Shown piece after piece: positions 8,161-63,200 of a stretch of DNA of 64,000 nucleotides. The notes under the pieces were generated by a model. The model was not told the origin of the DNA. It did not search any database and saw only the letters and a list, made by a program, of their open reading frames with translations. The stretch lies in IMG/VR virus record IMGVR_UViG_3300028840_006907, positions 192,001 to 256,000 of that record; one strand, given 5' to 3'. This DNA comes from a virus. How positions within the stretch are numbered: the first letter of the stretch is position 1; every line of letters begins with the position of its first letter. Both the position numbers and the translations under genes were made by a program.

Positions 8161-8186
8161 ATGTATCAATAAATAAAAAAATCAAT

Positions 8187-8250: not shown

Positions 8251-8376
8251 TAGTGAATTAAATCAATGAGTTACAGTGAGTGCTACTGTGTAATTTAAAG
8301 CGGATTTAAATTTAAAATTAGTACTAAAAAATACAGTATAGTCTAAAAATAAAGGACTATTTATTAGGAATAAATT

Positions 8377-8559: not shown

Positions 8560-9367
8560 TACAGTTATGTGGAAACAAGATATAATACATGAGTTATTTA
8601 AAGAGACGATTAAAGTTAAAGGTGTTTTATACAAAATGGATATAGGAGAAGCTTATCCTCATGTCAAAGAGGGTCTCCCTATTTTAAAAGAATTCCTTCC
8701 AAAAACTGATTGTTATTACATGGGTACTCTTGATCTTACTGTGAAACTTATGGGTCAGTTTGAGAAGAATGCAGAACAAATGAAGTCAAATTATGATTAT
8801 GAAAACATACATTTTCCAAAGAAATATACTTTATGGGAATACTCTCTTCCTAAAGGAGGAAGGCATGGTATCAAAAAAGAGGCTCTGTATGTTTTAGATG
8901 AAGATAATAAAATATTCATTTGGCCGTTAATTTTTAGTCCAGAATTTAAAATATGGATTCCAGGTATGTATTGGGTATTTCTTTTTAAGAATCCTGCAGG
9001 TACGATGAAATTAGTGGGTCCAAATGATTTAAAAGAAGAAGAGATAGAGGATTTTGAAGAGACAGGACGGCGAGTTGTGTCTTATGTTCTAACCTTTTTG
9101 AAGATATTATCTTGTAAAAATGTAAAACAAGAAACCGTGACTTCTTATTTAACAAAACAGAAAAGGTACGGTAATAGACCTCTTTACCCTTATAAAATGG
9201 TGAGAGTTAAATCTATTAAATCGTATGAAGAGGATCCTGATTCTTCTGATTATGAAAACATTAGCTTCTGTCGTGGGCATTTTAAACAATATTTCCCAGA
9301 TAAACCGTTATTAGGAAAGTATACAGGTCTTTATTGGTGGGATCCTCATTTGCGGGAGGATGAGTAA
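8552..9367 (+). CDS. hypothetical protein
   Basis: 271-aa ORF, overlapping start with upstream stop. Confidence 0.5.
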   Translation: MCDTVMWKQDIIHELFKETIKVKGVLYKMDIGEAYPHVKEGLPILKEFLPKTDCYYMGTLDLTVKLMGQFEKNAEQMKSNYDYENIHFPKKYTLWEYSLPKGGRHGIKKEALYVLDEDNKIFIWPLIFSPEFKIWIPGMYWVFLFKNPAGTMKLVGPNDLKEEEIEDFEETGRRVVSYVLTFLKILSCKNVKQETVTSYLTKQKRYGNRPLYPYKMVRVKSIKSYEEDPDSSDYENISFCRGHFKQYFPDKPLLGKYTGLYWWDPHLREDE

Positions 9368-25458: not shown

Positions 25459-26373
25459 ATGGATAATTTAATAGTAGATGGTTTTGGTATAGTTTATAAG
25501 TCACATTATGCTTTTAATACCCTATTAACTTCTACAGGGATATTATCTGGAAGTGTTTATGGTTTTTTGATTAGTATGAGAACTATTAAAAATAGTTATC
25601 CTCATTGTCATCTGACGATTGCTTGGGATAATGATGCTACAAGAAGAAAAGAAGCCTTTAGCAGTTATAAAAGTAATCGTAAAAAAATAGGTCTCTTTGA
25701 ACAAATAGAAGATCTCAAAGAAATTTTTTCAAATTTAAATGTCTCTCAGGCCGAATATGCGGGAGAAGAAGCTGATGATGTTATAGCATCTCTGACAAAG
25801 AAATACACTGAAAATTTAGTCTATATTTACAGTTCAGATAAAGATATGTTTCAATTGGTTGAAAATGGGAAAGTTATTGCCATAAGACCTAAAAAAGGCA
25901 AAAATCCTGAGAGATATTATGATGAAGAGAAAGTCAAAGAAGAATTTGAGGTCAGTCCGAAAAATTTTGCTTGTTTTCAATGTTTTCGAGGGGATTCTGT
26001 CGATGGCATCCCAGGAGTCCCACGTGTGAAATCTTCTTTACTTGCTTACCTTTCAGAAAAATACGAAACTCCAGAAAGAATCTACCAACATCTCGATGAA
26101 GAAAAATTAACTCCTTATCAAAGAAAAGCTCTTTTAGAATTTAAGGAACAAATAACAGTTAATATGCAGTTAGTGACATTACGTACAGATTTAGTATTAA
26201 ATGTGATTGATGGTGAACCTAAACCTTCTGCATTATTACCTTTTTTAGATAAGTATGAAATACGTTCAATTAACCCAGATACATATGCAAGAGTCTTTGC
26301 AGATATCCCTTCTTTTAATGCAAGAAAAGCTCCTAGTTTTGAGAGCTATTCTTTATTTGATGATGAGGAGTAA
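25459..26373 (+). CDS. 5'-3' exonuclease / flap endonuclease (PIN-like)
   Basis: N-terminal LIVDGFGIVYKSHYAF and acidic clusters typical of Pol I-type 5' nuclease; helix-hairpin-helix-like DGIPGV. Confidence 0.7.
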   Translation: MDNLIVDGFGIVYKSHYAFNTLLTSTGILSGSVYGFLISMRTIKNSYPHCHLTIAWDNDATRRKEAFSSYKSNRKKIGLFEQIEDLKEIFSNLNVSQAEYAGEEADDVIASLTKKYTENLVYIYSSDKDMFQLVENGKVIAIRPKKGKNPERYYDEEKVKEEFEVSPKNFACFQCFRGDSVDGIPGVPRVKSSLLAYLSEKYETPERIYQHLDEEKLTPYQRKALLEFKEQITVNMQLVTLRTDLVLNVIDGEPKPSALLPFLDKYEIRSINPDTYARVFADIPSFNARKAPSFESYSLFDDEE

Positions 26374-45828: not shown

Positions 45829-46470
45829 TTATCTATCAAATTCTGAAATTTTCATATCTTTTAAAGTGATTATATAATTCTTTTTAACACCACTCTCAAT
45901 GAATTTGATTAATGACTCCGATGCTACTGCCACTGCCAGAAGTATAATATTCCTGGCCAATGGGTACTCGCATACATCAGGAGCTATCGTGTCTTTTGGG
46001 ACGGTATAAGATTCGTTCCATATTATTTCCGCGTAATCCTGAGACAGCCCGACATGTAAACAGCTCAAACCATTATCCTTACAATATTGATAAACTAATT
46101 TTCGGCTAATATTATTATCAAAAGAATCGATGATAATATTTGGTTTTTTCAAATATTTACTCACAGTAGTTTTATTAAGTTCTTTACTATTGGCATTCAA
46201 AACAGTTTTGGTTGAAGCATATGCTCTCATTTTCATAGTCGCTACTTTGTAGGTACCTTTTTCATTTTGGTTCCAGATCTGGGTACCATTATTGTGAGGT
46301 TCAATTCTGTCTTTATCGATAATTGTAATTTCTTTGAATCCCTGTCGAACTAAATTATCACAAAGATTTGACCCTATTGCTCCGACACCACAGAGTGTAA
46401 TTGGGGTTGTTGATAATTTACCAACTACTTCTTCAGATCGATACATTCTTTCATGTATTAATAAATCCAT
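45829..46470 (-). CDS. ThiF/MoeB-family E1-like adenylyltransferase
   Basis: Rossmann GxGxxG (LCGVGAIGSNL) followed by IIDKDRIEPHN (DxDx-IE-xxN) signature of E1-like enzymes. Confidence 0.7.
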   Translation of the reverse strand: MDLLIHERMYRSEEVVGKLSTTPITLCGVGAIGSNLCDNLVRQGFKEITIIDKDRIEPHNNGTQIWNQNEKGTYKVATMKMRAYASTKTVLNANSKELNKTTVSKYLKKPNIIIDSFDNNISRKLVYQYCKDNGLSCLHVGLSQDYAEIIWNESYTVPKDTIAPDVCEYPLARNIILLAVAVASESLIKFIESGVKKNYIITLKDMKISEFDR

Positions 46471-46474
46471 AATA

Positions 46475-46999
46475 TCATCCTATCCTAGCTATAATGCGAT
46501 CTTTTAACAAGACAAAGGGAATTTCAATACAACCTACAATCCGGTCTTTGTCTCTTTTATATAAATAAAATCTTTGTACTTCTGATTTGATTCCACATAA
46601 TAACGGTTTACCCAAAGCTTTGACCCAACCAGTCATAGTTTTATCATCTAAGGATGAAGGTTCCATTATATTACTTGGATGAGTATGATTAAAACCTACT
46701 ATTTTATTTCTGTCTCTGATTACTTTTTCCCAGTCAAAATCAACTGAACCAGGACCACCAGTGGATTCATAGATTAGTCTACCATAAATCCATTTGCAGT
46801 ATTTTTTACCATATATGATCCAACAATTTTCGTTAATTGTTTGTACTACTTCAATAGCTTCTATTGTTAATTTATTTTTATTGTAAATACCTTTATATGT
46901 TCGACCACATTCTGGGCATGGCATTCTTTGTGTTTCATTTTCTGTAATCCAGCATATATATTTTCCGCACTTACATGTAAATTCACTGCTTTCGGGCAT
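46475..46999 (-). CDS. JAMM/MPN+ metalloprotease with N-terminal zinc ribbons
   Basis: HTH-PSNIMEP-S-SL-D fits JAMM motif HxHx7Sx2D; two CxxC pairs at N-terminus. Confidence 0.7.
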   Translation of the reverse strand: MPESSEFTCKCGKYICWITENETQRMPCPECGRTYKGIYNKNKLTIEAIEVVQTINENCWIIYGKKYCKWIYGRLIYESTGGPGSVDFDWEKVIRDRNKIVGFNHTHPSNIMEPSSLDDKTMTGWVKALGKPLLCGIKSEVQRFYLYKRDKDRIVGCIEIPFVLLKDRIIARIG

Positions 47000-47025: not shown

Positions 47026-47925
47026 CTAATACAACGTTCTACTTATTTGATGAGTGCGTTGACCCTCTTTTATTACAGAAATTAATGCTTTTAAATCATA
47101 GTCTTTATCACCAACATGACCTGTTTCATGGTCGGTTAAACAGATGCCTGCAGTAATAACGTGGTGACTTTGATCTTTAGTAACAATAGTATTAAATTTC
47201 TCTCCATCGATTTCATATGTTACATAAATATGATCCGATTTTTCATCACTGCTCAGGTATTTACCTCCGGCAAATTCTATATCACGTTGAATCTTTGTTT
47301 TTTTCTTTTCTTCAAGTGCTCGTTCACGTTCTTCTTTGATTTTTAAATCGATTTTGTATTTTATGTTAAAAGCAATTTTCTCCTCCAATGTCAGACCAGA
47401 GAATTTTAATTTAGATGGGTCTCTGAATTCTTTCAGGGACTCATTAAGATAATCTGTAATCATCGGATCGGCTGACATATCCATTGAATCAAACCAGATA
47501 TTAGCTCCGTCAAATCGGCATAGACATTTAGAAAATGTTGTAACCATATCATCGAAAAGAAGAACTGGGTATAATTCTGATACTTTTAATCCCAGATGAT
47601 TACTCTTTATCGGGATCCCAAGATAAAAATCTTTCTTTTTATGTACTAAAACCATTCTTATCTTTGGTAAATATTTAAGATAAGATTGAATCTCATCTAT
47701 TTCCGCTAAATCTATTGCTTCAGCCCGTTTATTATCAAGTGCTTTGAATTTGTACCATCCCGGTTCTGTTTTCGGGATGTTTAAGTAATGAATAATTCCT
47801 TGAATACGGATAATGATTCGGTCATTATAATACACAGGAGAAATGATAGTCTTTTCAGTCATCATTTCTTCCTGTTTCCCTATTTTATCAATAAGGTTTA
47901 AAATATTATCTTTTCTTACGGTCAA
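47026..47925 (-). CDS. hypothetical protein
   Basis: 299-aa ORF between JAMM and Ro60-like genes. Confidence 0.5.
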   Translation of the reverse strand: MTVRKDNILNLIDKIGKQEEMMTEKTIISPVYYNDRIIIRIQGIIHYLNIPKTEPGWYKFKALDNKRAEAIDLAEIDEIQSYLKYLPKIRMVLVHKKKDFYLGIPIKSNHLGLKVSELYPVLLFDDMVTTFSKCLCRFDGANIWFDSMDMSADPMITDYLNESLKEFRDPSKLKFSGLTLEEKIAFNIKYKIDLKIKEERERALEEKKKTKIQRDIEFAGGKYLSSDEKSDHIYVTYEIDGEKFNTIVTKDQSHHVITAGICLTDHETGHVGDKDYDLKALISVIKEGQRTHQISRTLY

Positions 47926-49462
47926 AAGATTTCCTCACGGGTAAAGGTGTATCCATGATCTCATATAGAAGATCGAGTTTTGATTTTCTGGATAGCAATG
48001 GAATTAATCCAGGCAATCCATAGTAATCGCTACCTTCAGGTTCATAGTAATCGAAAGGTATTCTAGCTTGTTTTAAATACATGCTGAATTCTTTACGACT
48101 CCATGAACTTGGAATGTAAATAATAGTAATAGTAGGAGTCACATTAAATTTTTTAACATAATTATCCCATATCTCAACGAAAAATGGATTATTATTTTCA
48201 CCTTCATCAGTGACCACTATTATCTGTTCTACATAATAGTTTTTTCTAATAAGGTAATCTAATGCTATACCTATGGAAGTCCCACCATTACTTTTTACAG
48301 GTCTGAAAGCCCTTTCCCAGGCAGACATATTCGGTTCATTAGCTGTGATCTCTCTGGCCATTGTATCAAAAGTAATAGCATAGAGAGGAGCTTCTGTAGC
48401 ACCTGAAATAAGAGCCGCAACATTTTTTCCGACTTCGATGGCTTGAGTCATAGAACCTGATTTATCGATAAAGACTGCAGTAGGTACTTTTATAACACCT
48501 TTCTTTTTAATTTGCTGATCTGCAATTTCATCGAGGATCTTTTGAGATTCCTCATTTTTGATCCGACCTGTTTTCTTTGCTTCTTTGGATTTTAAAGCTG
48601 ATACATTTTTAGCTTTTTTAGCTTTTTCCAATTTAGCCGTAATCAATGTTTTTGTATCCTCATTGTCCATGGCACCACGTTCTTCTAGGGAAGCATAGTT
48701 ATTAATAACTTCCTGTGGAGACATAGCATTGATTAGAGCAATCAGAATTGTAGGAGTGATTTGATCAACCAAACCTACAGCCACCGTATAAGGTACTTTA
48801 TGTTCTATAATCAGCTTTGCCACTTCAGTCGGATTATCAGCTTGTGCTATTTTTTCGAAAACATTTAATTTACTGTCCGTAGGACGTTCATTTCCGAAAA
48901 GAATCTTCTGAGCACGTTCACTAGGTGCTATACGAAGAGTAGCATATAATCCTTTAAGATCTTTTGGACTTTTTAGGGCAATAGCATCAAAAAGATCGTT
49001 GTTGGTTTCAATATATTGAAGAAATTTCTCAACATCCCTTTTAAAGGCAGTAGGAATATTTTTGTAAAGACCTACATTTTTTTCTTCAATTTTTACTTCA
49101 TCGATCATTTTTTTCTTCATTTTTATTTTTTTGCCCGTTTTATTTCTGATCTTTATTTTTTTACCTTTAATAAAACCGACCACACGTCTTTTAAGATATA
49201 CAGGTATTTCCCTGAAGAGGGCTAGCCCAACTTCACGGTTGTCAAGAAATTCATCAACAATAAGTGAACCGATGAATACTTCTTTATGATCCCGAATATC
49301 TCCATTCTTGTAGTACCAGCTTCCAAGGTGGGCATAAAACAGCGGATCTGCTTTTTGTAATTCAAGATGGGTATTTTTTAATTTATCTAGGTCCCGGTGA
49401 GGGCAACTCAGAAATGAGTTAAGCATGTTAACTCTGATATCATTTTCGTTAGCTTGGTTCAT
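47906..49462 (-). CDS. rsr: Ro60/Rsr-like RNA-binding protein (TROVE-like N-terminal region plus vWA domain)
   Basis: C-terminal vWA with MIDAS residues FIDKSGSM, NGGTSIG, VVTDEGEN (same arrangement as Ro60 DVSASM / AGGTD / FTDNE as recalled); N-terminal ~320 aa with ILIAL helix; next to tRNA-mimic RNAs. Confidence 0.6.
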   Translation of the reverse strand: MNQANENDIRVNMLNSFLSCPHRDLDKLKNTHLELQKADPLFYAHLGSWYYKNGDIRDHKEVFIGSLIVDEFLDNREVGLALFREIPVYLKRRVVGFIKGKKIKIRNKTGKKIKMKKKMIDEVKIEEKNVGLYKNIPTAFKRDVEKFLQYIETNNDLFDAIALKSPKDLKGLYATLRIAPSERAQKILFGNERPTDSKLNVFEKIAQADNPTEVAKLIIEHKVPYTVAVGLVDQITPTILIALINAMSPQEVINNYASLEERGAMDNEDTKTLITAKLEKAKKAKNVSALKSKEAKKTGRIKNEESQKILDEIADQQIKKKGVIKVPTAVFIDKSGSMTQAIEVGKNVAALISGATEAPLYAITFDTMAREITANEPNMSAWERAFRPVKSNGGTSIGIALDYLIRKNYYVEQIIVVTDEGENNNPFFVEIWDNYVKKFNVTPTITIIYIPSSWSRKEFSMYLKQARIPFDYYEPEGSDYYGLPGLIPLLSRKSKLDLLYEIMDTPLPVRKSFDRKKR

Positions 49463-49483: not shown

Positions 49484-49750
49484 TCAGGTTTCAATTTTTC
49501 CGAAAGTAGCATTTGGTCTAACTGTAATGTTACCATTTTTATGGTGTTCAACAACTAATTCAGCAAATTCTGATGCTGGTCTATCATAATGATCTACTAA
49601 AGCCAATTTAATTTGTTCACCAGTTATATTATCCGATGTGATCTCGGTTCCTGGTTCAATCCCGAGTTGTTCCCATCTGTCTTCTGGGAAAAGATCTTTG
49701 AGATTAATATCTTCAGTTTGACCATCATACATTATATGGACTTCACTCAT
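49484..49750 (-). CDS. hypothetical small protein (first gene of the Ro60-like operon)
   Basis: ATG at 49750 with RBS AAGGAGG; promoter-like motif upstream; 88 aa. Confidence 0.5.
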   Translation of the reverse strand: MSEVHIMYDGQTEDINLKDLFPEDRWEQLGIEPGTEITSDNITGEQIKLALVDHYDRPASEFAELVVEHHKNGNITVRPNATFGKIET

Positions 49751-49790
49751 ATGAGCCTCCTTGTAATAAGTTAAAAAAAGAGTCCCGTAT

Positions 49791-49806
49791 ATTATACGAC
49801 ACGAGA
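49791..49806 (-). promoter_or_regulatory. promoter-like motif TCTCGTGTCGTATAAT (minus strand)
   Basis: Copy of recurrent element ~35 nt upstream of the minus-strand operon RBS. Confidence 0.45.
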
Positions 49807-49888
49807 TTAACATTTCATTAAGTAAAAAATTGGGTAGAATATAAATTCTTGTGTGTCATCATGGTAAATAACTTTTTTAAAAAAATTA

Positions 49889-49917
49889 TTGACACACTTA
49901 AAATTTATGGTTATATT
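49889..49917 (+). promoter_or_regulatory. sigma70-like promoter candidate for the tRNA / structured RNA locus
   Basis: TTGACA, 17-nt spacer, TATATT, ~40 nt upstream of tRNA. Confidence 0.4.
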
Positions 49918-49955
49918 ATTGACAGTTCTGCACTCTAACTTTTGATGCTTACATA

Positions 49956-50032
49956 GAGAAAATAGCTCAGTTGGTCAGAGCGCGAGATTTAGGTTCTTGA
50001 AGTCTTCGGTTCAATTCCGAATTTTCTTACCA
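49956..50032 (+). tRNA. tRNA, predicted anticodon UAG (Leu-type) with short variable loop and encoded CCA
   Basis: Cloverleaf: acceptor GAGAAAA/TTTTCTT, D arm GCTC-AGTTGGTCA-GAGC, anticodon arm CGAGA-TTTAGGT-TCTTG, 5-nt variable loop, T arm TTCGG-TTCAATT-CCGAA, A73, CCA. Confidence 0.75.
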
Positions 50033-50249
50033 TAAAATTAGCACCTTCAACTTGTGCAGAACTACTTAAACCAAGAAATAAAAGTCAGACATTCTAATTA
50101 TTAGGGCGTACATGGCGTTAAAACCATGCTTCCTGCAGAAATCAGGAAGCAATCTCTGGGCCAAGGCTCAGGGGCGCACTGATGACTTATGTCTGACTTA
50201 ATATAGATTGTAAAGTGTTGTAAAATAAATTTGATCTTTGAAAATTATA

Positions 50250-50429
50250 GGATAATGCCTTCTAACCTGTTGGGCTTACAAATTTTACTGGTTCGACTCC
50301 AGGTTCCGCCTCTCGGTCCTTTTGTAAAGATTGTAAAGGATCAGGAGGCGGAACAAGCCGGGTGGTCTGGCGATTGAATGCAAATCAATTTATTTGAAAT
50401 TAACGCTCTTTTAACTTGGGCATTTATCC
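50250..50429 (+). ncRNA. tRNA-mimic structured RNA unit 1 (Y RNA / YrlA-like candidate)
   Basis: Outer stem GGATAATGCC/GGCATTTATCC then T-run; T-arm-like GGTTCGACTCC; long hairpin GTTCCGCCTC...GAGGCGGAAC; D-arm-like GCCGGGTGGTCTGGC; hairpin ATTGA-ATGCAAA-TCAAT. Confidence 0.55.
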
Positions 50430-50477
50430 TTTTTTATAGTAATTTATAATTTTATATAAAGTGATCTTTGAAAATAT

Positions 50478-50660
50478 GAGGTAAGTGCCTCCTAACATAA
50501 CGGGCTTACAAATTAATAGGGTTCAACTCCCTGTTCCCCCGCCTAAGTCTTTGTCATATAATGATTAAGATTTGGGCGGGGGAACGAGCTGGGTGGTTCA
50601 GCAATCAACGTTTAATTGATGAAAAACATTTTTACGCTCTTTTAACTTAGGCACTTACTC
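50478..50660 (+). ncRNA. tRNA-mimic structured RNA unit 2 (Y RNA / YrlA-like candidate)
   Basis: Outer stem GAGGTAAGTGCC/GGCACTTACTC then T-run; T-arm-like GGGTTCAACTCCC; long hairpin GTTCCCCCGCC...GGCGGGGGAAC; D-arm-like GCTGGGTGGTTCAGC; hairpin ATCAA-CGTTTAA-TTGAT. Confidence 0.55.
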
Positions 50661-50683
50661 TTTTTATTAAATTGAAATTACAA

Positions 50684-50855
50684 GGAGCACCTTCTAACCT
50701 GTTGGGCTTACAAGTTATTCGGGGTTCAAATCCCTGTCCCGGCACTAGGTTGATTCCCTAAAAGTCAACCCAGTGCCGGGATAGCCAAATTGGTAAAGGC
50801 GACTATATTGAACATAGTAAACAAAACTATCTACGCTCTTTTAACTTGGGTGCTC
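50684..50855 (+). ncRNA. tRNA-mimic structured RNA unit 3 (Y RNA / YrlA-like candidate)
   Basis: Outer stem GGAGCACC/GGTGCTC; T-arm-like GGGGTTCAAATCCC; long hairpin TCCCGGCACT...AGTGCCGGGA; D-arm-like GCCAAATTGGTAAAGGC; hairpin ACTAT-ATTGAAC-ATAGT. Confidence 0.55.
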
Positions 50856-50899
50856 TTTATATATTTCTCGCAAAAGGAATACAGGGTGAAACAGGAGTA

Positions 50900-50940
50900 T
50901 AGGGATTAAGAAGAAATTTTTGATCCCTATTTTATTTTTT
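50900..50940 (+). terminator. terminator candidate after RNA locus
   Basis: TAGGGAT ... ATCCCTA stem with 16-nt loop followed by TTTTATTTTTT. Confidence 0.35.
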
Positions 50941-50955
50941 CCCGGATTTTCCCTA

Positions 50956-50972
50956 CCTTCATGTCGTATAAT
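50956..50972 (+). promoter_or_regulatory. promoter-like motif CCTTCATGTCGTATAAT
   Basis: 16/17 identical to the element at 18192-18208; ~45 nt upstream of ATG 51016. Confidence 0.45.
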
Positions 50973-51015
50973 TATTAGATAAAGATTTTCTAAACATTTT
51001 ATTAGGTAATTAATT

Positions 51016-53643
51016 ATGACATGTAAAATTTGTAAGAGTAATCTTTCTTATACTTTTGATAAATTTCCAGCTTATAAGTTCTGTCCTTGTTGTAACCTTT
51101 ATTTTCAAGAAGAATTTCCACCAAAGATATTTGAAGGTCCTGATGAGAATAACGGGCATGGTCCCGGTACAGGTCATTTAATGTCTGAGGATGAAAAGGA
51201 AATAAATAAAAATTTCGCTAATGTTCTCTATGATATGTTTATTCCTCGAACTCTTCTAGATATAGGTTGTAAATACCCCTATTTTATTAGTGTGTTAAAA
51301 GATAAAATAGATGTATTAGGAATTGATCCTATTTCAGAGATCTTGAAATATGGAGAAGAATTGGGTGTCTCTGTAATTCGTGATGATTTTGAAGATATGA
51401 ATATTACTCCTTTAAAAAATAAATTCGATTTAATAACTTTGATACATACTTTCGAACATTTTTATAGCCCAATAGAGACCATGAAAAAGATAATCGAATG
51501 TCTTACTCATAGAGGAGTGCTTTTAATAAGAATTCCAAACATAGATATTGAAGGTATAGAAAGAGATTTTACTGATCATCATGTTCAAATCCATCCCTTT
51601 ATATATTCAACACAAGCAATGTATCGAATCGCTCAAAAATTTGATTGTGAAATTTTTAGGGTCGATGATATTATTGGATATGGCCAGAGCGATTTTTATT
51701 TAAGGAAGAAAAGGGACCATCTTTCTTTATCGGTTTGTATGATTGTAAAAGATGAGGAAAAGAATGTTTCTGATTGTTTGGAGAGTATAAAAGATGTAGC
51801 TGATGAAATCATAGTTGTGGATACCGGATCTATAGATAATACCAAAGAAATAGTATCCAAATATACAACAAAGATATATGACTTTAAATGGATTGATGAC
51901 TTTTCTGCTGCTAGAAATCACTCTTTAAGTAAGGCAACGGGTGACTTTATTTTATGGCTTGATGCTGATGATATTGTAGAAAATCCAGAAAAGATTAATG
52001 AAATATTAAAAAATGATGATGCTAAGATATTTAATTTTAATATTAAATATGGAAATGATGTCTTTAGTCAGGCTAGACTATTTAGGAATTTTTATAATAT
52101 AAAATTTTCTGGTAGAGTTCATGAATATCCTGTAATCGATAATTTATATATAAAAGATACTGAAGTTAATGTAATTCATAAAACCGAAAAACATTCAACA
52201 GAAAACCGTTCTGATAGAAATCTCCGTCTCCTTAAAAAAGAATACGAAGATAATCCGAACAATTCCCGGACACTTTTTTACCTGGCAAGTGCTTATAAAG
52301 AACTTACTCGTTGGGATGAAGCTATAGATTTTTATCGAAAATATTTAACTATTTCTATCTGGAAAGATGAGAGATGGATGGCTCAAAAGAATATTGGATG
52401 TATTCTTTCCTGGAATAGAAAATATGAAGAAGCCATTGAAGAATTGAAGAAGGCTATTGAAATAGATGATCGATGGGCTGAGTCATATTATTATATAGCT
52501 GAGTGTTATTTCTATTTAAAAAACCCTCAAGAATGTATAAACTGGTCTTTAAAAGCTATTGAGAAAAAGATGCCCGAATCACCTCTTTGGAAAGAGATCC
52601 CAATTTATAATGACGCACCATACCGTTATCTCTTTGCTTCTTATGGTTCTTTAGGTGATTTTGAGAAAGCATTGCATTATTGTAAGATAGCATCAGAAAA
52701 AGTTCCTGAGGATGAATGGCTTAAGGAAAGAGTCACTTATTTTGAGAATGCTACAAAAGGAGTTCCTGTTGTAGTCGAATGTAATCGGTGGGGGGCTTTG
52801 GGTGATTGTTTAATGACAACTGCATCTTTACGTGCCATTAAGCATAAGATTCCGGGTTGTTTTATAAGATATGTCACCCATCCTAGTATGTTCCCGATCC
52901 TTGAAGGGAATAAGTTTATAGATGAACTTGTATCAGAATCTAAATCTGAGAACTCAGAAAAGGTTTATTTCTCATATCCTGACAGTAAATCTCCTATTAA
53001 AGATGAAGGTTATCCTAATAAGCCTTTGAATCGCCATTTAGTACGTATATTCGCAGAATGTGCTGGTTTAAAAGAATTTGATAATCTAAAGATGGAGTGT
53101 ACTCTTACAAAAGATGAGGAGAAATCAGGTCAGTCATTGAGATCTCGATTTAAGAAATATGTGACTCTTCATATCCATTCGGGTTGGTCTGAGTATAAGG
53201 ATTGGTATAATGATCGTTGGGAGACTGTTGTAGATGAGTTATTTAAAAGAGGTTACGTGGTTGTTCAGCTAGGCCATAAAGATGAGGGTCTCTTAGTTGG
53301 TACTGTGGATTATAGAGGCCATACTATAAAAGAAGCTATCTCTGCAATAAAATATGCTGATATTCATTTAGGAGTGGATTCATTTACAAACCATGCCTCG
53401 GCTACTGTGGGGACTCCTGCAGTTATTTTATTTGGGTCTACTTCTCCAACCGGTTCCGGGTATGATCAGAATATAAACCTTTATAAAGATTTGAAATGTC
53501 AGCCTTGTTATAAAGAATATGCATGGTCTAAGGATAATAAAGGAAAATGTCCTTATAATAAACTATGTATGGATCAGATCCTGGTTCAGGAAGTATTAGA
53601 CGGTTTTATGAGATTAGAAAAAAAATTATTTATTGATGGATAA
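51016..53643 (+). CDS. multidomain glycosyltransferase (Zn-ribbon, methyltransferase-like, GT2, TPR, GT9-like)
   Basis: N-terminal CxxC pairs; LLDIGC methyltransferase-like motif; GT2 core SVCMIVKDEE...EIIVVDTGSIDNT...LWLDADD; TPR-like helices; C-terminal GT9-type LGVDSFTNHASATVGTPAVILFG. Confidence 0.7.
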   Translation: MTCKICKSNLSYTFDKFPAYKFCPCCNLYFQEEFPPKIFEGPDENNGHGPGTGHLMSEDEKEINKNFANVLYDMFIPRTLLDIGCKYPYFISVLKDKIDVLGIDPISEILKYGEELGVSVIRDDFEDMNITPLKNKFDLITLIHTFEHFYSPIETMKKIIECLTHRGVLLIRIPNIDIEGIERDFTDHHVQIHPFIYSTQAMYRIAQKFDCEIFRVDDIIGYGQSDFYLRKKRDHLSLSVCMIVKDEEKNVSDCLESIKDVADEIIVVDTGSIDNTKEIVSKYTTKIYDFKWIDDFSAARNHSLSKATGDFILWLDADDIVENPEKINEILKNDDAKIFNFNIKYGNDVFSQARLFRNFYNIKFSGRVHEYPVIDNLYIKDTEVNVIHKTEKHSTENRSDRNLRLLKKEYEDNPNNSRTLFYLASAYKELTRWDEAIDFYRKYLTISIWKDERWMAQKNIGCILSWNRKYEEAIEELKKAIEIDDRWAESYYYIAECYFYLKNPQECINWSLKAIEKKMPESPLWKEIPIYNDAPYRYLFASYGSLGDFEKALHYCKIASEKVPEDEWLKERVTYFENATKGVPVVVECNRWGALGDCLMTTASLRAIKHKIPGCFIRYVTHPSMFPILEGNKFIDELVSESKSENSEKVYFSYPDSKSPIKDEGYPNKPLNRHLVRIFAECAGLKEFDNLKMECTLTKDEEKSGQSLRSRFKKYVTLHIHSGWSEYKDWYNDRWETVVDELFKRGYVVVQLGHKDEGLLVGTVDYRGHTIKEAISAIKYADIHLGVDSFTNHASATVGTPAVILFGSTSPTGSGYDQNINLYKDLKCQPCYKEYAWSKDNKGKCPYNKLCMDQILVQEVLDGFMRLEKKLFIDG

Positions 53644-54250: not shown

Positions 54251-57200
54251 ATGGCCAAGACAAAAAGGAAATGGATTGAGCTGGATTGGTACAATCCCAA
54301 TGCCTTACGTGCACAAGACATACCTTACGATCAAACCGAAAGTGTAAAAGATGCTATAGATAGAGCTGCCTCTGGAGTTCTCGGTCCGACGGGGACCACG
54401 GGTTCGACCGGTTCAACAGGTTCGACGGGTCCAACGGGTCCGACGGGAGCCACGGGTGCGACGGGAGCAGGAATCCAGGGTGAAACCGGAGTCGCTGGAG
54501 TTCAAGGAGCTACCGGAACCGGTGGTGGTGGAGATACTGGTGTCCAGGGTGAGACCGGTTTACCCGGAGCCACAGGAATCCAAGGTACAACCGGTATCCA
54601 GGGAACTACAGGAATCCAAGGTGAAACTGGAATCCAGGGACATACAGGTACAGTTGGAACAACGGGTGTTCAAGGAGAAACCGGTTCTCAGGGTACTACT
54701 GGAATCCAGGGAGAAACTGGAGTAAAAGGTGAAACTGGTATTCAAGGTCAAACCGGTATAGCTGGTGGAGCAGGATTTCCAGGAGCAACTGGAGTCCAGG
54801 GCGAAACCGGAGTCCAAGGAACTACTGGGGTTCAAGGGGAAACCGGGGTTCAAGGAACCACAGGAGTAGCCGGAGCAACCGGAGTCCAGGGAACTACTGG
54901 CGTCCAGGGAACTACTGGCATCCAAGGTGAAACGGGTGTCCAGGGAGATACTGGAGTTGGTGCCACTGGAATCCAAGGAACCACAGGTATCCAGGGTCAA
55001 ACCGGTGTTCAAGGTATCACCGGAGCTTATGGTGGTCCTCCTGGAGAAACTGGTGTCAAGGGAGAAACCGGAGTACAGGGGGCTACTGGAATCCAAGGTC
55101 TTCAAGGATTGCAGGGAACCAAAGGTGAGACCGGAACACAAGGTATTCAAGGCCAGACCGGAGTTCAGGGAGAAACTGGAGTTCAAGGGCAGACTGGTAC
55201 AGGTGCTCCAGGAGCCACTGGAGTTCAAGGGCAGACTGGTATCCAGGGAACCACTGGAATAGGTTTAGGTTCAACAGGAGTAGCGGGAGCAACTGGAATT
55301 CAAGGTACTACCGGAGTTCAAGGTAGGACTGGAGTCCAAGGATTTACCGGAGCTGCTGGTTTAGGTGAAACTGGTATCCAAGGAGCTACCGGAGTCCAGG
55401 GTGCCACAGGTATTCAAGGGACTACTGGTGCAGGAATCCAAGGAGCCACAGGTATTAGTGGTGACACGGGAGTTCAAGGAGCCACAGGAATTAGAGGTAC
55501 TACTGGTGCAGGAATCCAAGGAGCCACGGGGGTTCAGGGCATTCAAGGTCAAACTGGAGCCCAGGGCGAAACCGGAGTCCAGGGTGAAACCGGAATAGAA
55601 GGTTCTCAATTTGCAGGATTTAATTATAAAGCAAAAACAGACAATCAATCTGATACAGATCCTGGTATAGGAAATTTAAAGTGGAGTGCTGTAGCTCAAG
55701 TCACATCTAGTGAGCTTTATGTGGATGATGCTGACGTTAATTCTACGGATCTCAGTAATTTTTACCTCACTTTAAAAGCTGCCGACTCTTTACGTATTGT
55801 TCGTATGGAAGATCCTTCTCAGTATCAGATTTTTAATATAACAAACGTTACTGATAGAACCGGATGGTTCCGTTTATCTGTTACACCTGTTGTTTCAGGT
55901 GGTTCGACTTTTAGTTTAAATGATAATATCATACTGATATTTAGTATATCAGGTCCTAGAGGTCAGACCGGAGTAAAAGGTGAGACTGGAATTCAAGGAA
56001 CTACAGGTGTTGCCGGAGCCACAGGAGTCCAAGGTCAAACTGGAATTCAGGGTCAAACTGGAATCCAGGGCATACAGGGCCAGACTGGAATTCAAGGACA
56101 AACTGGTATTCAAGGTCAAACAGGAATCCAAGGTCAGACAGGTGTTGGCGCTCAGGGTGCTACTGGTGTAGCTGGTCAAACCGGGGTCCAGGGAGAAACT
56201 GGGATACAAGGTCAGACTGGTGCAGGAATCCAGGGAACTACTGGTGTTCAAGGCGTTCAAGGATTAACAGGTGTGCAAGGCCAGACAGGTGCCGGAATCC
56301 AAGGTGAAACCGGAGTCCAGGGTACTCAAGGTTTAACCGGTATACAGGGTCAGACAGGTGCTGGAATCCAAGGAGAGACTGGTGTTCAGGGAAACACTGG
56401 GGCTTTTGGTGGTCCTCCCGGAGAAACTGGTGTTCAGGGAGAAACTGGTGCACAAGGTTTAACTGGAGTCCAAGGTCAAACCGGAGCAGGTATTCAGGGA
56501 GCCACTGGTATTCAAGGAGTTACTGGAGTTCAAGGCCAAACCGGTGCTGGTATTCAAGGAGTCACTGGAATCCAAGGACAAACTGGTATACAGGGTCAGA
56601 CAGGAGTAGCAGGTCAGACCGGAGTCCAAGGAATACAAGGCCAGACAGGAGTAGCAGGTCAGACCGGAGTTCAAGGAATTCAAGGACAAACCGGAATAGC
56701 AGGTCAGACCGGAGTTCAGGGTATACAAGGTCAAACTGGAATTCAAGGGCAGACTGGTGCTGGAATCCAAGGTACAACTGGAGTAGCCGGAGCTACAGGA
56801 GTTCAGGGAATTCAAGGTCAAACAGGAGCTGGAATCCAAGGTACAACTGGAGTCCAGGGAACTACAGGAGTTCAAGGTGAAACTGGTACTGGTATTCAGG
56901 GAGAAACTGGTACGCAAGGTATTCAGGGTCAAACCGGAATTCAGGGACAGACTGGGATTCAAGGTAATACTGGTGTAAAAGGTGAAACCGGAGTTCAGGG
57001 TTTTCCAGGTCCTCAGGGTACGAAAGGTGATACTGGTGCTCAAGGTATTCAAGGTGAGACAGGAACTCAAGGAATTCAGGGCCAAACTGGAGTAGCTGGA
57101 GAAACTGGAGTTCAGGGTCAAACGGGTACTCAAGGAATTCAGGGTCAGACTGGTGTAGCTGGTGCAACTGGTGCGGGAATTCAAGGTCAAACTGGTGTTC

Positions 57201-60200
57201 AAGGAATCCAAGGTCAGACTGGAATCCAGGGGCAAACTGGAGTCCAGGGTGAAACAGGTATAGAAGGATCTTTATGGGCTGGATTTAGTTATAATGCCAA
57301 GACTGATGATCAGTCAGATACAGATCCTGGTACAGGGAATCTTAAATGGAGTACTGTTGCTCAGGTAAATGCGGGTGAACTTTATGTAGATGATACTGAT
57401 CAATATTCCATAGATTTAAGTAATTTTTATCTTACGTTAAAGGCTGGTGATTCTCTTCGAATAATTCGTCAGGAAGACCCTTCTCAATATCAAATTTATA
57501 ATATAACAAATGTTACAGATAGAACAGGTTGGTTCCGTCTTAGTGTGACCTATGTTACTTCAGGTGGATCTACTTTCAGTCTTAATGATAATATTATTCT
57601 TGTTTTTGTTAAAGCTGGAATTCAAGGTCAGACAGGTGCCCAAGGTATTCAAGGTCAAACAGGAGTCCAAGGAATTCAAGGACAGACTGGAGTTCAAGGA
57701 GCCACAGGTACCCAAGGAATTCAGGGGCCACAAGGCCAGATAGGTCTTCAAGGTACTACTGGGGTCCAAGGTGAAACCGGAGTCCAGGGCACACAAGGTC
57801 AGACGGGTATCCAGGGTACAACAGGTGCCGGGATTCAGGGTCAAACCGGAGTCCAGGGAATTCAGGGTCAAACCGGTATTCAAGGTCAAACAGGAGCAGG
57901 TATTCAGGGAGCTACTGGTATTGCTGGTATAGATGGTCAGACTGGAATCCAGGGTGAAACCGGAATTCAGGGCCAAACTGGAGCTGGTATTCAGGGAGCT
58001 ACTGGTATTGCTGGTATAGATGGTCAGACTGGAATCCAGGGTGAAACCGGAATTCAGGGCCAAACTGGAGCTGGAATCCAAGGTGAAACCGGTATCCAAG
58101 GAATTCAAGGATTAACAGGTATTCAAGGTACAACTGGTGCTGGCATTCAGGGAGAAACTGGAGTACAGGGTACACAAGGTCAAACAGGTGTTCAAGGTCA
58201 AACAGGTGCCGGAATTCAGGGTGAAACCGGAGTCCAGGGCACACAAGGTCAAACCGGTATTCAGGGTCAAACTGGCGCTGGTATCCAAGGTGTGACAGGA
58301 ATTCAAGGAATACAAGGACAAACTGGTATCCAGGGTCAAACGGGTGCCGGAATCCAAGGAGAAACCGGAGTCCAGGGAGAAACAGGAATACAAGGTCAGA
58401 CTGGTGCAGGAATCCAGGGAACTACTGGTGTTCAAGGCGTCCAAGGATTAACAGGTGTCCAGGGTCAAACTGGTGCTGGTATTCAAGGTGAAACCGGAGT
58501 CCAGGGTACTCAAGGTTTAACTGGTATACAGGGTCAGACAGGTGCTGGCATTCAGGGAGAAACCGGGGTCCAGGGAGAAACTGGAATACAAGGTCAGACT
58601 GGTGCAGGGATTCAGGGTGTGACAGGAATTCAAGGTCAAACTGGAGTTCAGGGAACTACAGGAATCCAGGGTCAAACAGGTGTTGGGATCCAGGGTGTGA
58701 CTGGAGTTCAAGGAATTCAAGGTCAAACCGGTATTCAAGGTCAAACCGGTATTCAAGGTGAAACCGGAGTGTCTGGAGCTACAGGTATTCAGGGAATTCA
58801 AGGTCAAACCGGAATCCAGGGTCAGACCGGAGTCCAAGGAGAAACAGGTGTACAAGGTTCTACAGGTGTATTAGGTGATCCTAATTGGATAGATTTTGTA
58901 CCTCAAGCATCTGCTCCTAGTCATCAGGAAGCTCGCCTTTTTTATGATTCAACAGACCATTCATTGAGTTATTACAATGAAGAATCTGATGTTACCCTGA
59001 ATTTAGGTCGTGAATTATATATCAGAGTGTATAATGCAACAGTTTCAACAATAACTAACGGTCAAGTAGTTTATGTCACAGGTGTTGCTGCAGGATACCC
59101 CACAATAGATTTAGCAGATGGTAGTGATTTAACTAAGACTAATAATATAGGAGTGGCTACTCATAATATAGAAGCCTCAACATTTGGTTATATCACATTA
59201 TTTGGATTAGTAAGAGATATTAATACTAATGCTTTCAGTGCTGGTGATGAAGTTTGGTTAAGTGAAAGTACTCCAGGTGGTTACCAGTCTTTTGCAGGTA
59301 CATATGCCGTTAAAATAGGTTATGTTGTTGTTTCAGATACATTAAATGGTTCAATAATGGTAGCTATGGGTGATACGGAAGCTACTATAGCTGGATTGAA
59401 TGATGTAAATCTTACTAGTATCTCTGATGGTCAGTATTTACAATGGGACTCGGATTCTACTAAATGGGTTAATGTTTCTGAAAGTCCTCAAGGTGATACA
59501 GGTATCCAAGGAGCAACTGGAGTTCAAGGAATTCAAGGAACTACAGGAGTTCAAGGAGCAACTGGAGTTCAAGGTATTCAAGGAACCACAGGAATTCAAG
59601 GACAGACCGGAGTTCAGGGTGAAACCGGAATTCAAGGAACTACAGGAGTCCAGGGAGAAACTGGTACTGCAGGAATAGACGGTCAGACAGGAGTTCAGGG
59701 TGAAACCGGTATTGCAGGAATAGATGGTCAGACAGGAGTTCAAGGTACTACCGGAGTTCAGGGAATTCAAGGAACTACAGGAATTCAGGGAGAAACCGGT
59801 ACTGCAGGAATAGACGGTCAGACAGGAGTTCAAGGTGAAACTGGAACTGCAGGAATAGACGGTCAGACAGGAGTTCAAGGTACTACCGGAGTTCAAGGAA
59901 CCACTGGAATTCAAGGTACTACCGGAATTCAGGGAACTACTGGAATTCAGGGAGAAACCGGTACTGCAGGAATAGACGGTCAGACAGGAGTCCAAGGTAC
60001 TACTGGGATTCAGGGGGAAACCGGAGTCCAAGGTACCACAGGGATTCAGGGAGAAACCGGAGTCCAAGGTACTACTGGAATTCAGGGAGAAACTGGTGTT
60101 TTTGGGATTGTCAATTATATCGATTATGAACCTCAAGATACAGTTCCTTCTCATTTAGAAGGTCGTACCTTTTATGACAGTACAGATCATTCTTTAAGTT

Positions 60201-63200
60201 ATTATTTAGATTCAACCGATGTGACTCTTAATATAGGGCAAGAATTTCTTATTCGAGTTGAGAATAAATCGGGTGGAGCAATAGTAGATGGTCAAGCAGT
60301 CTACGTCACTGGTTCTAATGAAGATGTCCCTGAAGTAAATCTAGCAAAAGCAGATTCTTCAAATACTTCTGAGGTTTTAGGTATTGCTACTCAGGTAATT
60401 GAAAATGATACGCAAGGTTATGTTACTTGTGCTGGAAAAATACGTAACTTAAATACTAGTGATTGGACTTCAGGAGATTTACTTTATTTATCTGATAAAA
60501 CTGCTGGTGCATTGACCAATGTTCAACCTTCAGGTAATAGTAATATATTTAGTGTTCATATAGGTCTTGTTATAAGATCACATGCTAGCGATGGTGTTAT
60601 TTTTGCTCACCGTCATATTCCTCATTACCGTCCAGAACAGTTAAGAGATACCACTGCATCTTCTTTAACTGATGGTCAGGTTTTATCTTATGAAAGTAGT
60701 ACAGATAGATGGATAAATAGCACTTTACCTTCAATTACACAATCTATAGATAGAAATGAACCTGGTGGTTTTGTCAACAGAACAGACAGTACAGTAGGTT
60801 TTACTGAATCTACTCGTACTTTGCAAGTTACAACCGCGAGTTCTTATGATATCTATCAGGCTGGTACTAAATATACAATTAATGCAACCGATTCTACTCA
60901 AATTCCTGATACAAATGGTTTGCACTATATTTATTTCGATACCACTAATATGACTGTACAAACGAATCCAGCACTTCAGAATATTCTAGATATCATATAT
61001 GAAAAATCTCTTATTGCTGCGATATATTGGAACTCTTCCGATGATAGAGCTATTATAACCAATGATGAACGTCATGGTATTGTGATGGATGGTAGGACCC
61101 ATTCTTATCTTCATACTACTAGAGGAACTCAATATACATCACCAGGCTTAACTCCTGGAGATTTTGATATTGATGGAGCTGGAAGTAATGACAGTGCCAG
61201 TCAAATGAGTATTTCTGATGGGCAAATACAAGATGAAGATATTTGGTTTGAAATTCAAGATGGTAATCCTCAAATATTAGATCCTATAGCTGAAATTCCT
61301 GTTATTTATAAAGATGGTGCAGGAGCTGAATGGAAAATAAAATATTGGACAGCTTCATGGGCATCTGCAACCTCTTATCCTACTGGTACTATAATAAGAG
61401 AGAGTAATTCTTATTTTAGATCTAGTGGAGGAACTTCAGGTGGTGCTCTTCCTGCTTTTTCTGCAAATCGTGAACCAGGTGATACTATTGTTGATAATAC
61501 AATTACGTGGACAAATGTTGGTTCTCCATTGTCTCCTGTGATTAATTTTGTGGGAGGTAATTATAGATTAGCATATAATCAGTTTACTGGTGGGGCATGG
61601 CAACAAACCGAAGTAACAAATGGTAATTATGTTCTTACTCATATATTTGCTACGACTGATATTTTTCATCCTATTATGGCTATTCAAGGTGAGAATGAGT
61701 ATGGTAATGTTGCTGCAGCTAGAGCAGGAGCTTTAACAGAACTAGATAGTATTGTATTGTCTGGATTGGATTTTCCTGAATCAATATTTCTTGCTACAGT
61801 TATTTTTCAGACTAATAATACTTATACTAATCAAGTAAAAGCTCGAACTATCTCAACTGATACAGGTGATGATTTTATAGATTGGAGATTTTCTCAAATC
61901 AATGCAGCCTCAACAGGTGATCAAGGTCCTCAAGGAGAAACTGGTGTTCAAGGGGTACAGGGTGAAACCGGAGTACAGGGTGAAACCGGAGTAGCAGGAG
62001 CAACTGGTGTTCAAGGAATACAAGGCCAGACTGGAATCCAGGGAGAAACTGGAATTCAAGGAGCCACAGGTGTTGCCGGAGCAACTGGTGTTCAAGGGAT
62101 CCAAGGTCAGACTGGAATCCAAGGAGAAACTGGAATTCAAGGAACTACGGGAGTAGCAGGAGCAACTGGTGTCCAAGGAATCCAAGGAGAAACCGGAATT
62201 CAAGGAGAAACCGGAATTCAAGGAGCAACTGGTGTTCAAGGTATTCAAGGAACAACCGGAGTTCAAGGAATTCAGGGAACCACAGGAGTTCAGGGTGAAA
62301 CCGGAGTCCAAGGAATTCAAGGAACCACAGGAATTCAAGGAATTCAAGGAACCACAGGAGTTCAGGGTGAAACCGGAGTCCAAGGAATTCAAGGAACCAC
62401 AGGAATTCAGGGTGAAACCGGAATTCAAGGAATTCAAGGAACCACAGGAGTTCAGGGAACCACAGGAGTTCAAGGAATACAAGGAACCACAGGAGTTCAG
62501 GGTGAAACCGGAGTCCAAGGAATTCAAGGAACCACAGGAGTTCAGGGAGAAACTGGAGTTCAGGGGATCCAGGGTCAGACTGGAATTCAGGGAGAAACTG
62601 GAGTAGCCGGAGCAACTGGAGTACAGGGCCAAACAGGAGTTCAAGGAATCCAAGGTCAAACTGGTATACAGGGAGAAACCGGAGTAGCCGGAGCAACCGG
62701 AGTACAGGGTCAAACAGGAGTTCAAGGAATCCAAGGACAAACTGGTGTTCAAGGAGCAACCGGAGTAGCCGGAGCTACTGGAGTTCAGGGAGAAACAGGA
62801 ATTCAAGGAATCCAAGGACAAACTGGTATACAGGGAGAAACCGGGGTAGCCGGAGCAACCGGAGTACAGGGCCAAACAGGAGTTCAAGGAATTCAAGGAA
62901 ATACTGGTGTTCAAGGAGCAACCGGAGTTCAAGGAACTCAAGGAGATACTGGAGTTCAAGGAACAACTGGTGTTCAAGGTGAAACCGGTTTAGAAGCAGC
63001 TTATCATTTCTTTGCGGATCAGTTGGATAGTCCTAATAATGCTGATTGGGCTGTTAATGCTCTTGCTCCAGCTTCTGCTGATACTACAAATAATGCTCTT
63101 GTTGTACGTCGGTTTGATGATACGGATGAAGAAGGTGTAGGATTTATGGTAAATATTCCAACAGGAAGGACAAATATAGTATTTGGATTTAAGAGTAGGG

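Follow-up and report, generated by a model that had tools for sequence, protein, structure and literature searches.

We analyzed a window of 64,000 nucleotides (nt) of viral DNA (positions 192,001 to 256,000 of IMG/VR record IMGVR_UViG_3300028840_006907), in which a 77-nt element at 49956..50032 on the + strand had been described in an earlier note, made from the sequence alone, as a tRNA with a Leu-type anticodon on a class-I body. Our results indicate that this element is probably the tRNA-shaped cargo of a Y-RNA-like transcript associated with Ro60 and not an ordinary tRNA-Leu gene. The element folds as a tRNA and is enclosed in a scaffold of paired flanks, hereafter the chassis, whose helices covary in homologous units. 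It adjoins a gene for a protein with a predicted Ro60 fold, to which such units are linked across huge phages, and the part of these units that changes fastest is the anticodon.

ARAGORN detected a single tRNA in the whole window, namely this element (unit 1 below), which it typed as Leu with its anticodon tag. The Rfam tRNA model (RF00005) matched 49956-50029 with 65.9 bits (E=4.3e-12), well over the gathering score of 29. Direct reading of the sequence gave a class-I cloverleaf with a UAG anticodon, G37, A73 and an encoded CCA. The acceptor stem GAGAAAA/TTTTCTT has 7 base pairs (bp) including a G1.U72 wobble, the D stem GCTC/GAGC closes the D loop AGTTGGTCA (in RNA form GCUC-AGUUGGUCA-GAGC), the anticodon stem CGAGA/TCTTG carries the loop TTTAGGT with U33, UAG and G37, the variable loop AAGTC has 5 nt, and the T stem TTCGG/CCGAA bears the T loop TTCAATT. 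The nucleotides that support tRNA tertiary structure are all present (U8, A14, G18G19, U33, G53-U54-U55-C56, A58 and C61). The anatomy reported in the earlier note, from the clean CCA-ending cloverleaf and the anticodon loop to the 5-nt variable loop of a class-I body under a Leu-type anticodon, was therefore correct in every detail, and the ARAGORN run that it had proposed as a check returned the same anticodon position and the same type. When unit 1 was folded in isolation its minimum free energy (MFE) structure was the cloverleaf, at -16.9 kcal/mol. The MFE fold of the tRNA with its flanks retains the outer helix of the chassis and loses the cloverleaf; evaluated explicitly, the structure combining chassis and cloverleaf lies within ~2 kcal/mol of the MFE.

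The flanks had been overlooked in the earlier note. Segments 49924-49955 and 50033-50063 pair together, in unit 1 through a 10-bp outer helix (P1) and a 4-bp inner helix (P2) separated by an internal loop, and their motifs recur over the next ~800 nt. The 1.2-kb non-coding stretch 49814-51015 contains an array of five such RNAs, unit 1 and four further elements named A to D (Table 1). On their 5' side all five have the terminal helix P1 followed by (U)UCUAA(C/U), N6, (U/G)GC(U/G) and UACA(U/A), and on their 3' side (A/G)GCNC, N4-7 and ACUU, each P1 being formed by the element's own ends. The most conserved block of the chassis is GCNUACAU, and a 3' block AAAA.U-AGCA-N5-(A/G)ACUU is conserved among 84 units. 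Element A, which has the chassis AAGUCAGACAU-UCUAAU...GGCG-UACAU ... GCGC...ACUU-AUGUCUGACUU, matches the chassis model R1 (described below) over its full length with 37.9 bits. Along each of the elements B to D, a T arm (GGUUCNANUCC) is followed by a long closed hairpin that resembles an acceptor stem, then by a D arm and finally by an anticodon-like hairpin of 5 bp and 7 nt; 18/44 pairs of their consensus fold are compensatory. The predicted transcription start (~49924) of the promoter-like site upstream of the array is the first base of P1. Besides the match at 50005-50021, which is the T arm of the tRNA, the hairpin at 50899-50940 is the sole + strand terminator-like site between or after the RNA elements.

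Y RNAs are the RNA partners of Ro60 proteins, and YrlA, the Y RNA of bacteria and phages, is encoded beside Ro60 and mimics tRNA (PMC4201824). The five window RNAs all have the terminal helix with a conserved internal loop that is expected of a Y RNA (P1, internal loop and P2). The tRNA-like module with T and D arms that characterizes YrlA is likewise found, as a full tRNA in unit 1 and as T and D arms in B to D. Unit 1 does not have the permuted topology of YrlA, since its arms are not permuted, its acceptor stem is open and CCA is present. In B to D the acceptor is closed and the module is opened in the variable region with its anticodon-like hairpin kept, which also differs from YrlA.

The gene next to the array (47906-49462, minus strand) encodes Ro60, as settled by structure prediction and Foldseek. 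It is divergent from the array, which begins 462 nt from its start codon. Its product has no TROVE match in Pfam, PHROG or NCBIfam and no direct sequence match in the PDB, and a profile search against the PDB returned a weak TROVE match (E=0.14); a PHROG HNH match on its vWA part was rejected as spurious. Homologues of the open reading frame (ORF) number >1,000 and occur on contigs as long as 512 kb, and an AlphaFold (AF2) model built with 37 of them reached a pLDDT of 84 and a pTM of 0.77. Compared with the PDB by Foldseek, the model matched Ro60/TROVE structures along its full length, and its top 13 matches were all of this kind (TM ~0.6, E 3e-11 to 2e-8), namely Xenopus and human Ro60, Deinococcus radiodurans Rsr and the Ro60 of Thermus phage phiLo (9kop, 9l5y), and its best viral matches in BFVD were Ro-like/TROVE proteins. 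Adjacency to a Ro60/TROVE gene, another property of Y RNAs, is thus found in the window, and the same linkage is seen in ~100 loci and genome-wide in the phage LR756511.1. The suggestion of the earlier note that the tRNA may have a non-canonical role is strongly supported by this context, with a Y-RNA-like scaffold around it and a Ro60 gene adjoining.

A megablast search of the 2.5-kb region against GenBank phages gave no match. We collected loci around related Ro60 genes, 16 viral, 80 metagenomic and 4 closer ones, three of which are syntenic (L017-L019; collected loci are numbered with an L). tRNAs were called just upstream of Ro60 in nearly all of these loci and most are flanked by the chassis. 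A search with a covariance model of chassis plus tRNA (R1) identified ~97 full-length units of 70-140 bits beside related Ro60 genes, and free canonical tRNAs match only the core of the model (positions 37-111). Over 82 distinct units the proposed pairs were 96.1% paired, against 59.8% in shuffled controls and at most 42% with the partners slid. P1 had two-sided changes at 10/10 pairs, with 4-6 pair types per column and 94.8% paired; P2 was 88% paired with changes on both sides, and all four tRNA stems covary as well. The chassis also holds other cargos, including small Y-like RNAs, permuted mimics and tRNA bodies without an acceptor stem that are fused straight to P2; the latter two kinds cannot be aminoacylated.

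Among the embedded units, 71 unique ones were called as complete tRNAs by ARAGORN. All 71 are class-I sized (72-78 nt) regardless of their anticodon, including those with Leu anticodons (TAG six times, CAA four times, TAA twice and AAG) or Ser-type anticodons (TGA and ACT), and the class-I body is thus the norm of the family. In contrast, Leu and Ser tRNAs that stand free in these loci are class II, with 84-86 nt. The GC fraction of the acceptor stem is 0.24 in embedded units versus 0.61 in free tRNAs, the anticodon loop is irregular in 7/71, and position 34 is T in 36, A in 15, C in 10 and G in 3 of 64 embedded anticodons. Three chassis units (L008:3215-3291, L009:3700-3771 and L054:2408-2483) have a TCA anticodon of the opal-suppressor type, labeled SeC by ARAGORN, which annotation pipelines could misread as stop-codon recoding in huge phages.

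Among GenBank phages this Ro60 occurs only in LR756511.1 (595 kb, complete, unannotated), which served as a genome-wide control. Part of its 63 tRNA calls form a class-II cluster at 427-437 kb, made up of Leu (TAG twice, TAA, CAA, CAG and GAG), Tyr and Ser tRNAs. True chassis units are only two, at 288.3 kb (UGU, 107.6 bits) and at 291.0 kb (CGA, 97.1 bits, a 75-nt class-I 'Ser'), both <4 kb upstream of Ro60 and on its strand. Three further full-length R1 matches far from Ro60 were rejected because on inspection they proved to be canonical GC-rich tRNAs without chassis motifs, and for this reason weak full-length R1 matches (<65 bits) should not be counted. This distribution sets the chassis units apart from the translational tRNA set of the phage, as supernumerary elements linked to Ro60. 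Likewise, in locus L010 a class-II tRNA-Leu(UAG) stands beside a chassis 'UAG' unit. Of note, ARAGORN also found in LR756511.1, far from the Ro60 locus, a tRNA with a CTA anticodon (179588-179661, amber-suppressor type, labeled Pyl).

The anticodon triplet is the hypervariable element of the chassis-unit family. For pairs of units with a body identity of 85% or more, the per-site difference was 0.62 in the triplet, compared with 0.22 at the other loop positions, 0.21 in P1, 0.16-0.23 in the internal loops and 3' linker, 0.09 in the body and 0.009 in P2. The anticodon thus changes ~3x faster than unconstrained linker positions and ~7x faster than the body. Because the triplet outpaces even the least constrained parts of the same RNA, we argue for targeted diversification and not for neglect. 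P1 behaves as a barcode of each unit, paralogues within one locus sharing only 47% of P1 and 55% of the body, and the anticodon differs in 37/41 pairs of units that share P1, including 8/12 with identical P1. L026 and L027 are identical except for the anticodon arm, with AUC versus UCU. In addition, the arm ATTGA-T(T/A)TCTAA-TCAAT occurs on otherwise unrelated bodies (L027:2924-2998, L029:2972-3047 and L054:2114-2189), a pattern which suggests that whole anticodon arms are exchanged between units and that point mutation is not the sole source of change.

The earlier note had proposed that the element may supplement CUA decoding; in its specific form this reading makes it a class-I tRNA-Leu(UAG) charged by leucyl-tRNA synthetase (LeuRS). 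We consider this very unlikely. Its premise that tRNA-Leu has a long variable arm holds as a description, the bona fide Leu tRNAs of related phages being 83-87 nt long, but E. coli LeuRS recognizes A73, A15-U48, G18G19 and A20a and uses neither the long arm nor the anticodon as identity elements (PMC9976931), so that leucylation is not excluded by shape alone. Unit 1 does have a Leu anticodon (NAG or YAA, here UAG at 49990-49992), A at 50029 as discriminator, G18G19 and G37, and the coliphage Bas63 has tRNA-Leu genes of 78-79 nt next to a Ro60-like gene. However, two of the four LeuRS determinants are missing, with G15:C48 and C20a in place of A15-U48 and A20a, and the D arm is a generic TAGCTCAGTTGGTCAGAGC, where every bona fide Leu tRNA examined has GGAAyTGGyAGAC and even the short Leu tRNAs of Bas63 have a Leu-type arm. 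Nor is the isotype kept among orthologues. In syntenic orthologues of unit 1 the anticodon is TCG (L018), ACG (L021) or TCT (L019/L023), and L017 has a 6-nt loop; base changes in their acceptor and anticodon stems are compensatory, and neither CCA nor chassis is lost. The window loop UUUAGGU is one substitution from UUUCGG of L018, UAG differing from the UCG of the closest orthologue by a change of C35 to A. The best BLAST matches of the body are phage tRNA-Pro genes (~80% identity), never Leu, and across chassis units the discriminator base does not vary in step with the anticodon. As a by-product of naming by anticodon, the 'Leu' label is probably meaningless. Supplementation of CUA found no support from codon usage either, as CUA ranks as minor in the window, with 5.4 per 1000 codons and 7.5% of those for Leu. 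Three further identities were rejected: a suppressor tRNA, because the UAG anticodon reads CUA and not a stop codon; a tRNA-Ala-like identity, because position 3:70 is G3:C70 instead of G3.U70; and a phage attachment site, as there is no integrase nearby and the units come in arrays. That the feature is a decaying pseudogene, or a chance cloverleaf between fortuitous inverted repeats, is hardly credible. The AU-rich acceptor stem with its wobble pair and the loss of the cloverleaf in the MFE fold of the flanked sequence would suit such an origin, but the Rfam score, the small energy gap between the combined structure and the MFE, and a body divergence of 0.09 per site versus ~0.2 in linkers speak against it, and compensatory changes in all stems among ~80 homologues effectively refute it.

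It is unlikely, although not to be dismissed, that unit 1 is a genuine decoding tRNA that reads CUA/CUN and that the chassis is only a precursor or processing element. The chassis would then be a leader-trailer helix, perhaps with Ro60 as chaperone because AU-rich acceptor stems fold poorly; RNase P and 3' trimming would release a CCA-ending tRNA to be charged as host or phage synthetases allow, and anticodon turnover would reflect a generic helper retuned to codon demand or evading host tRNA depletion. Several observations favor decoding, and the decoder-like features among them weigh against the interpretation as Ro60 cargo. The module looks fully decoder-competent, with a high-scoring cloverleaf and canonical tertiary nucleotides. 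Across the 71 units U33 is present in 62, a purine at position 37 in 66 and CCA in 51, and positions 36 and 37 follow decoder-like rules (G36 then G37 in 14/16, U36 then A37 in 21/22). Anticodons are mostly exact partners of A/U-ending codons, with T or A at position 34 in 51/64, as for helper tRNAs of AT-rich phages; 7-bp acceptor stems are maintained by compensatory change, and in D. radiodurans a real tRNA-Asp is co-transcribed with Y RNAs (PMC4201824). Further points also count against the cargo interpretation. Rfam, at gathering and at E<=10, returned tRNA only and no Y RNA or YrlA family. The published Ro60-binding motifs GNCGAAN0-1G (YrlA) and GGUCCGA (metazoa) are absent, the conserved blocks being UCUAAC, GCNUACAU, AGCA and AACUU. 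The case for Ro60 binding is made by position and architecture, through analogy with known Y RNAs. Because the covariation alignment was fitted to the model, pairing is somewhat overestimated, although the effect is far too large for an artefact, and the pairwise rate comparisons and pair counts are not phylogenetically independent. Against decoding, anticodons cross amino-acid families on near-identical bodies with no matching discriminator, and Leu and Ser anticodons sit on bodies without Leu or Ser core features. A34 is common (15/64) and G34 rare (3/64), irregular loops occur, and the same chassis holds cargos that can never be charged. LR756511.1 and L010 already own a class-II tRNA-Leu(UAG), CUA is minor in the window, and P1, more than a spacer, covaries as a selected structure.

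Under the cargo interpretation, one promoter (~49889-49917) would drive a polycistronic array of ~1 kb and five RNAs (the tRNA unit, A, B, C and D) ending at the terminator-like hairpin at 50899-50940, back to back with the Ro60 gene. The chassis closes each RNA, with a unit-specific P1, the asymmetric UCUAAC/AACUU internal loop and a short P2 followed by UACAU, and its likeness to the terminal bulged helix that all known Y RNAs share leads us to infer that it is the Ro60-binding module. The cargo would present the L-shape of a tRNA, unit 1 as a complete tRNA with 7-bp acceptor and CCA, B to D as permuted mimics with a closed acceptor, and would engage tRNA-recognizing factors. RNase P may nick or release the tRNA module, as for the YrlA of Mycobacterium smegmatis. 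The function would be that of a decoy, a spare tRNA or a tether. We speculate that the ribonucleoprotein (RNP) takes part in phage RNA repair or in counter-defense, as a decoy or spare against host nucleases that target tRNAs or anticodons, with an anticodon that would track host-specific pressure. We propose such a role because RtcB lies near Ro60 in L018, because in jumbo phages Ro60-Y RNA-RtcB is regarded as a platform for RNA repair (PMC7824862), and because the Ro60-like gp130 of Bas63 counters a defense system, Ppl (PhageMaP preprint, PMC11482910).

A bolder version, possible but on balance doubtful, is that huge phages encode a family of anticodon-addressed Ro60 RNPs, in which complete-tRNA Y RNAs carry a triplet under diversifying selection or cassette exchange as a programmable specificity determinant. 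If true, the anticodon could be a bait or decoy matched to the anticodon nucleases or tRNA-targeting defenses of each host; alternatively, it could guide Ro60, together with partner nucleases or ligases, to specific ribosomal codons or tRNA-handling enzymes. The tRNA-like domain of bacterial Y RNAs, long without an explanation, would then gain a concrete, testable function.

Table 1. Coordinates of the tRNA, its chassis, the RNA array, the Ro60 gene and its partner ORF in the window
Feature	Position	Strand	Remarks
Ro60 partner ORF, 299 aa, overlaps Ro60 stop	47026..47925	-	syntenic in L017-L019; 54 homologues
Ro60 orthologue, 518 aa, HEAT-repeat TROVE ring + vWA domain with DxSGS MIDAS motif	47906..49462	-	predicted structure
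Candidate sigma-70-like promoter, TTGACA-17-TATATT	49889..49917	+	11/12 consensus matches, best site in 49780-51050; consensus match only
P1 5' strand, AGUUCUGCAC	49924..49933	+	10 bp with 50054-50063; retained in MFE fold
Internal loop 5' side, conserved UCUAAC at 49934-49939	49934..49945	+	recurs in A-D and in 84-unit consensus
P2 5' strand UGCU (49946-49949) and conserved linker UACAUA into tRNA	49946..49955	+	
Acceptor stem	49956-62/50022-28	+	unit-1 tRNA
D arm	49965-81	+	unit-1 tRNA
Anticodon arm	49983-99; loop 49988-94; UAG 49990-92; G37 at 49993	+	unit-1 tRNA
Variable loop; T arm	50000-04; 50005-21	+	unit-1 tRNA
A73; CCA	50029; 50030-32	+	unit-1 tRNA
Linker UAAAAUU, P2 3' strand AGCA (50040-43), AACUU (50049-53) in internal loop 3' side	50033..50053	+	
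P1 3' strand, GUGCAGAACU	50054..50063	+	partner of 49924-49933
Element A, small Y-like RNA, three-hairpin junction closed by the chassis	50082..50199	+	MFE -54 kcal/mol, z=-8.2
Element B, chassis + circularly permuted tRNA mimic	50250..50429	+	fold z=-5.0
Element C, architecture as B	50478..50660	+	fold z=-6.6
Element D, architecture as B	50683..50857	+	fold z=-6.5
Terminator-like hairpin + T-run after D	50899..50940	+	pattern match only

The gene that follows Ro60 on the minus strand encodes a conserved 299-aa protein whose confident AF2 model (pLDDT 85) combines an N-terminal half rich in beta structure with a long helix and a small beta domain. Foldseek returned only weak S1, CSD and exosome-cap matches (best E=7.5e-4, TM<0.2), and the protein may be a tandem OB/S1-like RNA-binding partner of the RNP. 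Further along the Ro60 operon (45829-46999, minus strand) are a ThiF/E1-like adenylyltransferase of 213 aa (Pfam ThiF, 1.9e-23), conserved in L017-L019 and weakly similar to the Cap2-like protein from an anti-phage system, and a JAB/MPN deubiquitinase-like protein of 174 aa. The two make up a Ro60-linked pair for ubiquitin-like conjugation and deconjugation. A 109-aa ORF without family match (49484-49813, minus strand) separates Ro60 from the RNA array; its position is conserved in L017-L020, with 85-88 aa in relatives. On the other side the array is flanked by an 875-aa protein (51016-53643, + strand; syntenic in L017-L019) that combines a SAM methyltransferase, a GT2 glycosyltransferase, TPR repeats and a GT9 heptosyltransferase-like domain. 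Beyond it a 3078-aa ORF (54251-63487, + strand) consists mostly of collagen-like G-X-Y repeats (GxQGxTG...) with globular domains interspersed; its local GC is 0.45-0.49, in a window of GC ~0.34, and it is presumably a giant tail fiber or surface fibril. In L018 an RtcB RNA ligase gene (7896-8560) was found ~2.8 kb downstream of Ro60 and was not seen in the corresponding part of the window; its presence near Ro60 in a close relative fits the RNA-repair theme.

Phage Ro60 proteins with Y-like RNAs are already known (PMC4201824, PMC12135203). In the literature searched we came across neither a complete tRNA enclosed by a Y-type scaffold nor this chassis motif, nor any account of anticodon hypervariability, for YrlA or otherwise. 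The window RNAs resemble YrlA (Chen et al. 2014, PMC4201824; preprint 10.1101/312249) in lying within a few kb of Ro60, often several per locus and polycistronic, in having 5' and 3' ends that form a terminal stem with a conserved loop or bulge, and in carrying a tRNA-mimicking effector module with T and D arms and tRNA tertiary nucleotides. YrlA is modified by TruB and DusA; in M. smegmatis, where its acceptor-like stem has 7 bp, RNase P cleaves it and CCA is added (PMC4201824). In contrast to YrlA, which is opened at the anticodon stem and has a closed acceptor, no anticodon loop and no encoded CCA, unit 1 holds an entire tRNA in unpermuted order, anticodon arm and CCA included, whose own 5' and 3' ends connect it to the chassis, and B to D are opened elsewhere, in the variable region, and keep an anticodon-like hairpin. 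The motif differs as well, with GCNUACA plus UCUAAC/AACUU and no Rfam match in place of GNCGAAN0-1G, and the window Ro60 is too diverged for the Pfam TROVE model. In D. radiodurans a bona fide tRNA is also co-transcribed with Y RNAs next to rsr, in the order Yrn2-tRNA(Asp)-Yrn1 (PMC4201824); however, that tRNA is a separate gene between the Y RNAs, whereas the tRNA of the window is inside the Y-type terminal helix.

Among phages, coliphage Bas63 has the Ro60-like gp130 directly beside annotated tRNA genes, some of which the PhageMaP authors speculated to be Y RNAs (PMC11482910). These tRNAs match only the core of R1, are 5-8 nt apart, have no leader-trailer helix and hence no chassis, and form a normal decoder set of anticodons with G34. 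The Bas63 genome (Escherichia phage JohannRWettstein, MZ501086; L104) has three tRNA-Leu genes in the cluster after gp130 (24287-24364, 24864-24941 and 25605-25683), all with a short variable region. Thermus phage phiLo likewise encodes a Ro60 with adjacent Y-like RNAs, its protein being among the best structural matches of the window Ro60 and forming complexes with host PNPase (PMC12135203). Its Yrl1 and Yrl2 are stem-bulge-stem RNAs with a CGAA motif and no reported tRNA cargo.

The tRNA sets of T4 and T5 are examples of phage-encoded helper tRNAs. As with helper or anti-defense tRNAs (van den Berg et al. 2023, via PMC11482910), whose anticodon loops are, by that account, pressured by host tRNA nucleases, the chassis units are biased toward A/U-ending codons. 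Unlike the chassis units, such helper tRNAs are free-standing with isotype-consistent bodies, and they are not known to lie in a Ro60-linked scaffold or to switch anticodons between amino-acid families. Chassis units mislabeled through their anticodon have probably inflated tRNA counts and isotype or codon inferences for huge phages, likely as supernumerary 'tRNA-Leu', 'Ser', 'SeC/suppressor' and A34 tRNAs. The question of why the Y RNAs of bacteria and phages resemble tRNA has stood since 2014. The chassis-plus-tRNA family takes this mimicry to its limit, with a complete CCA-bearing tRNA inside a Ro60-type scaffold, and the rate excess of its triplet points to the anticodon as the functional read-out, which makes the question experimentally tractable.

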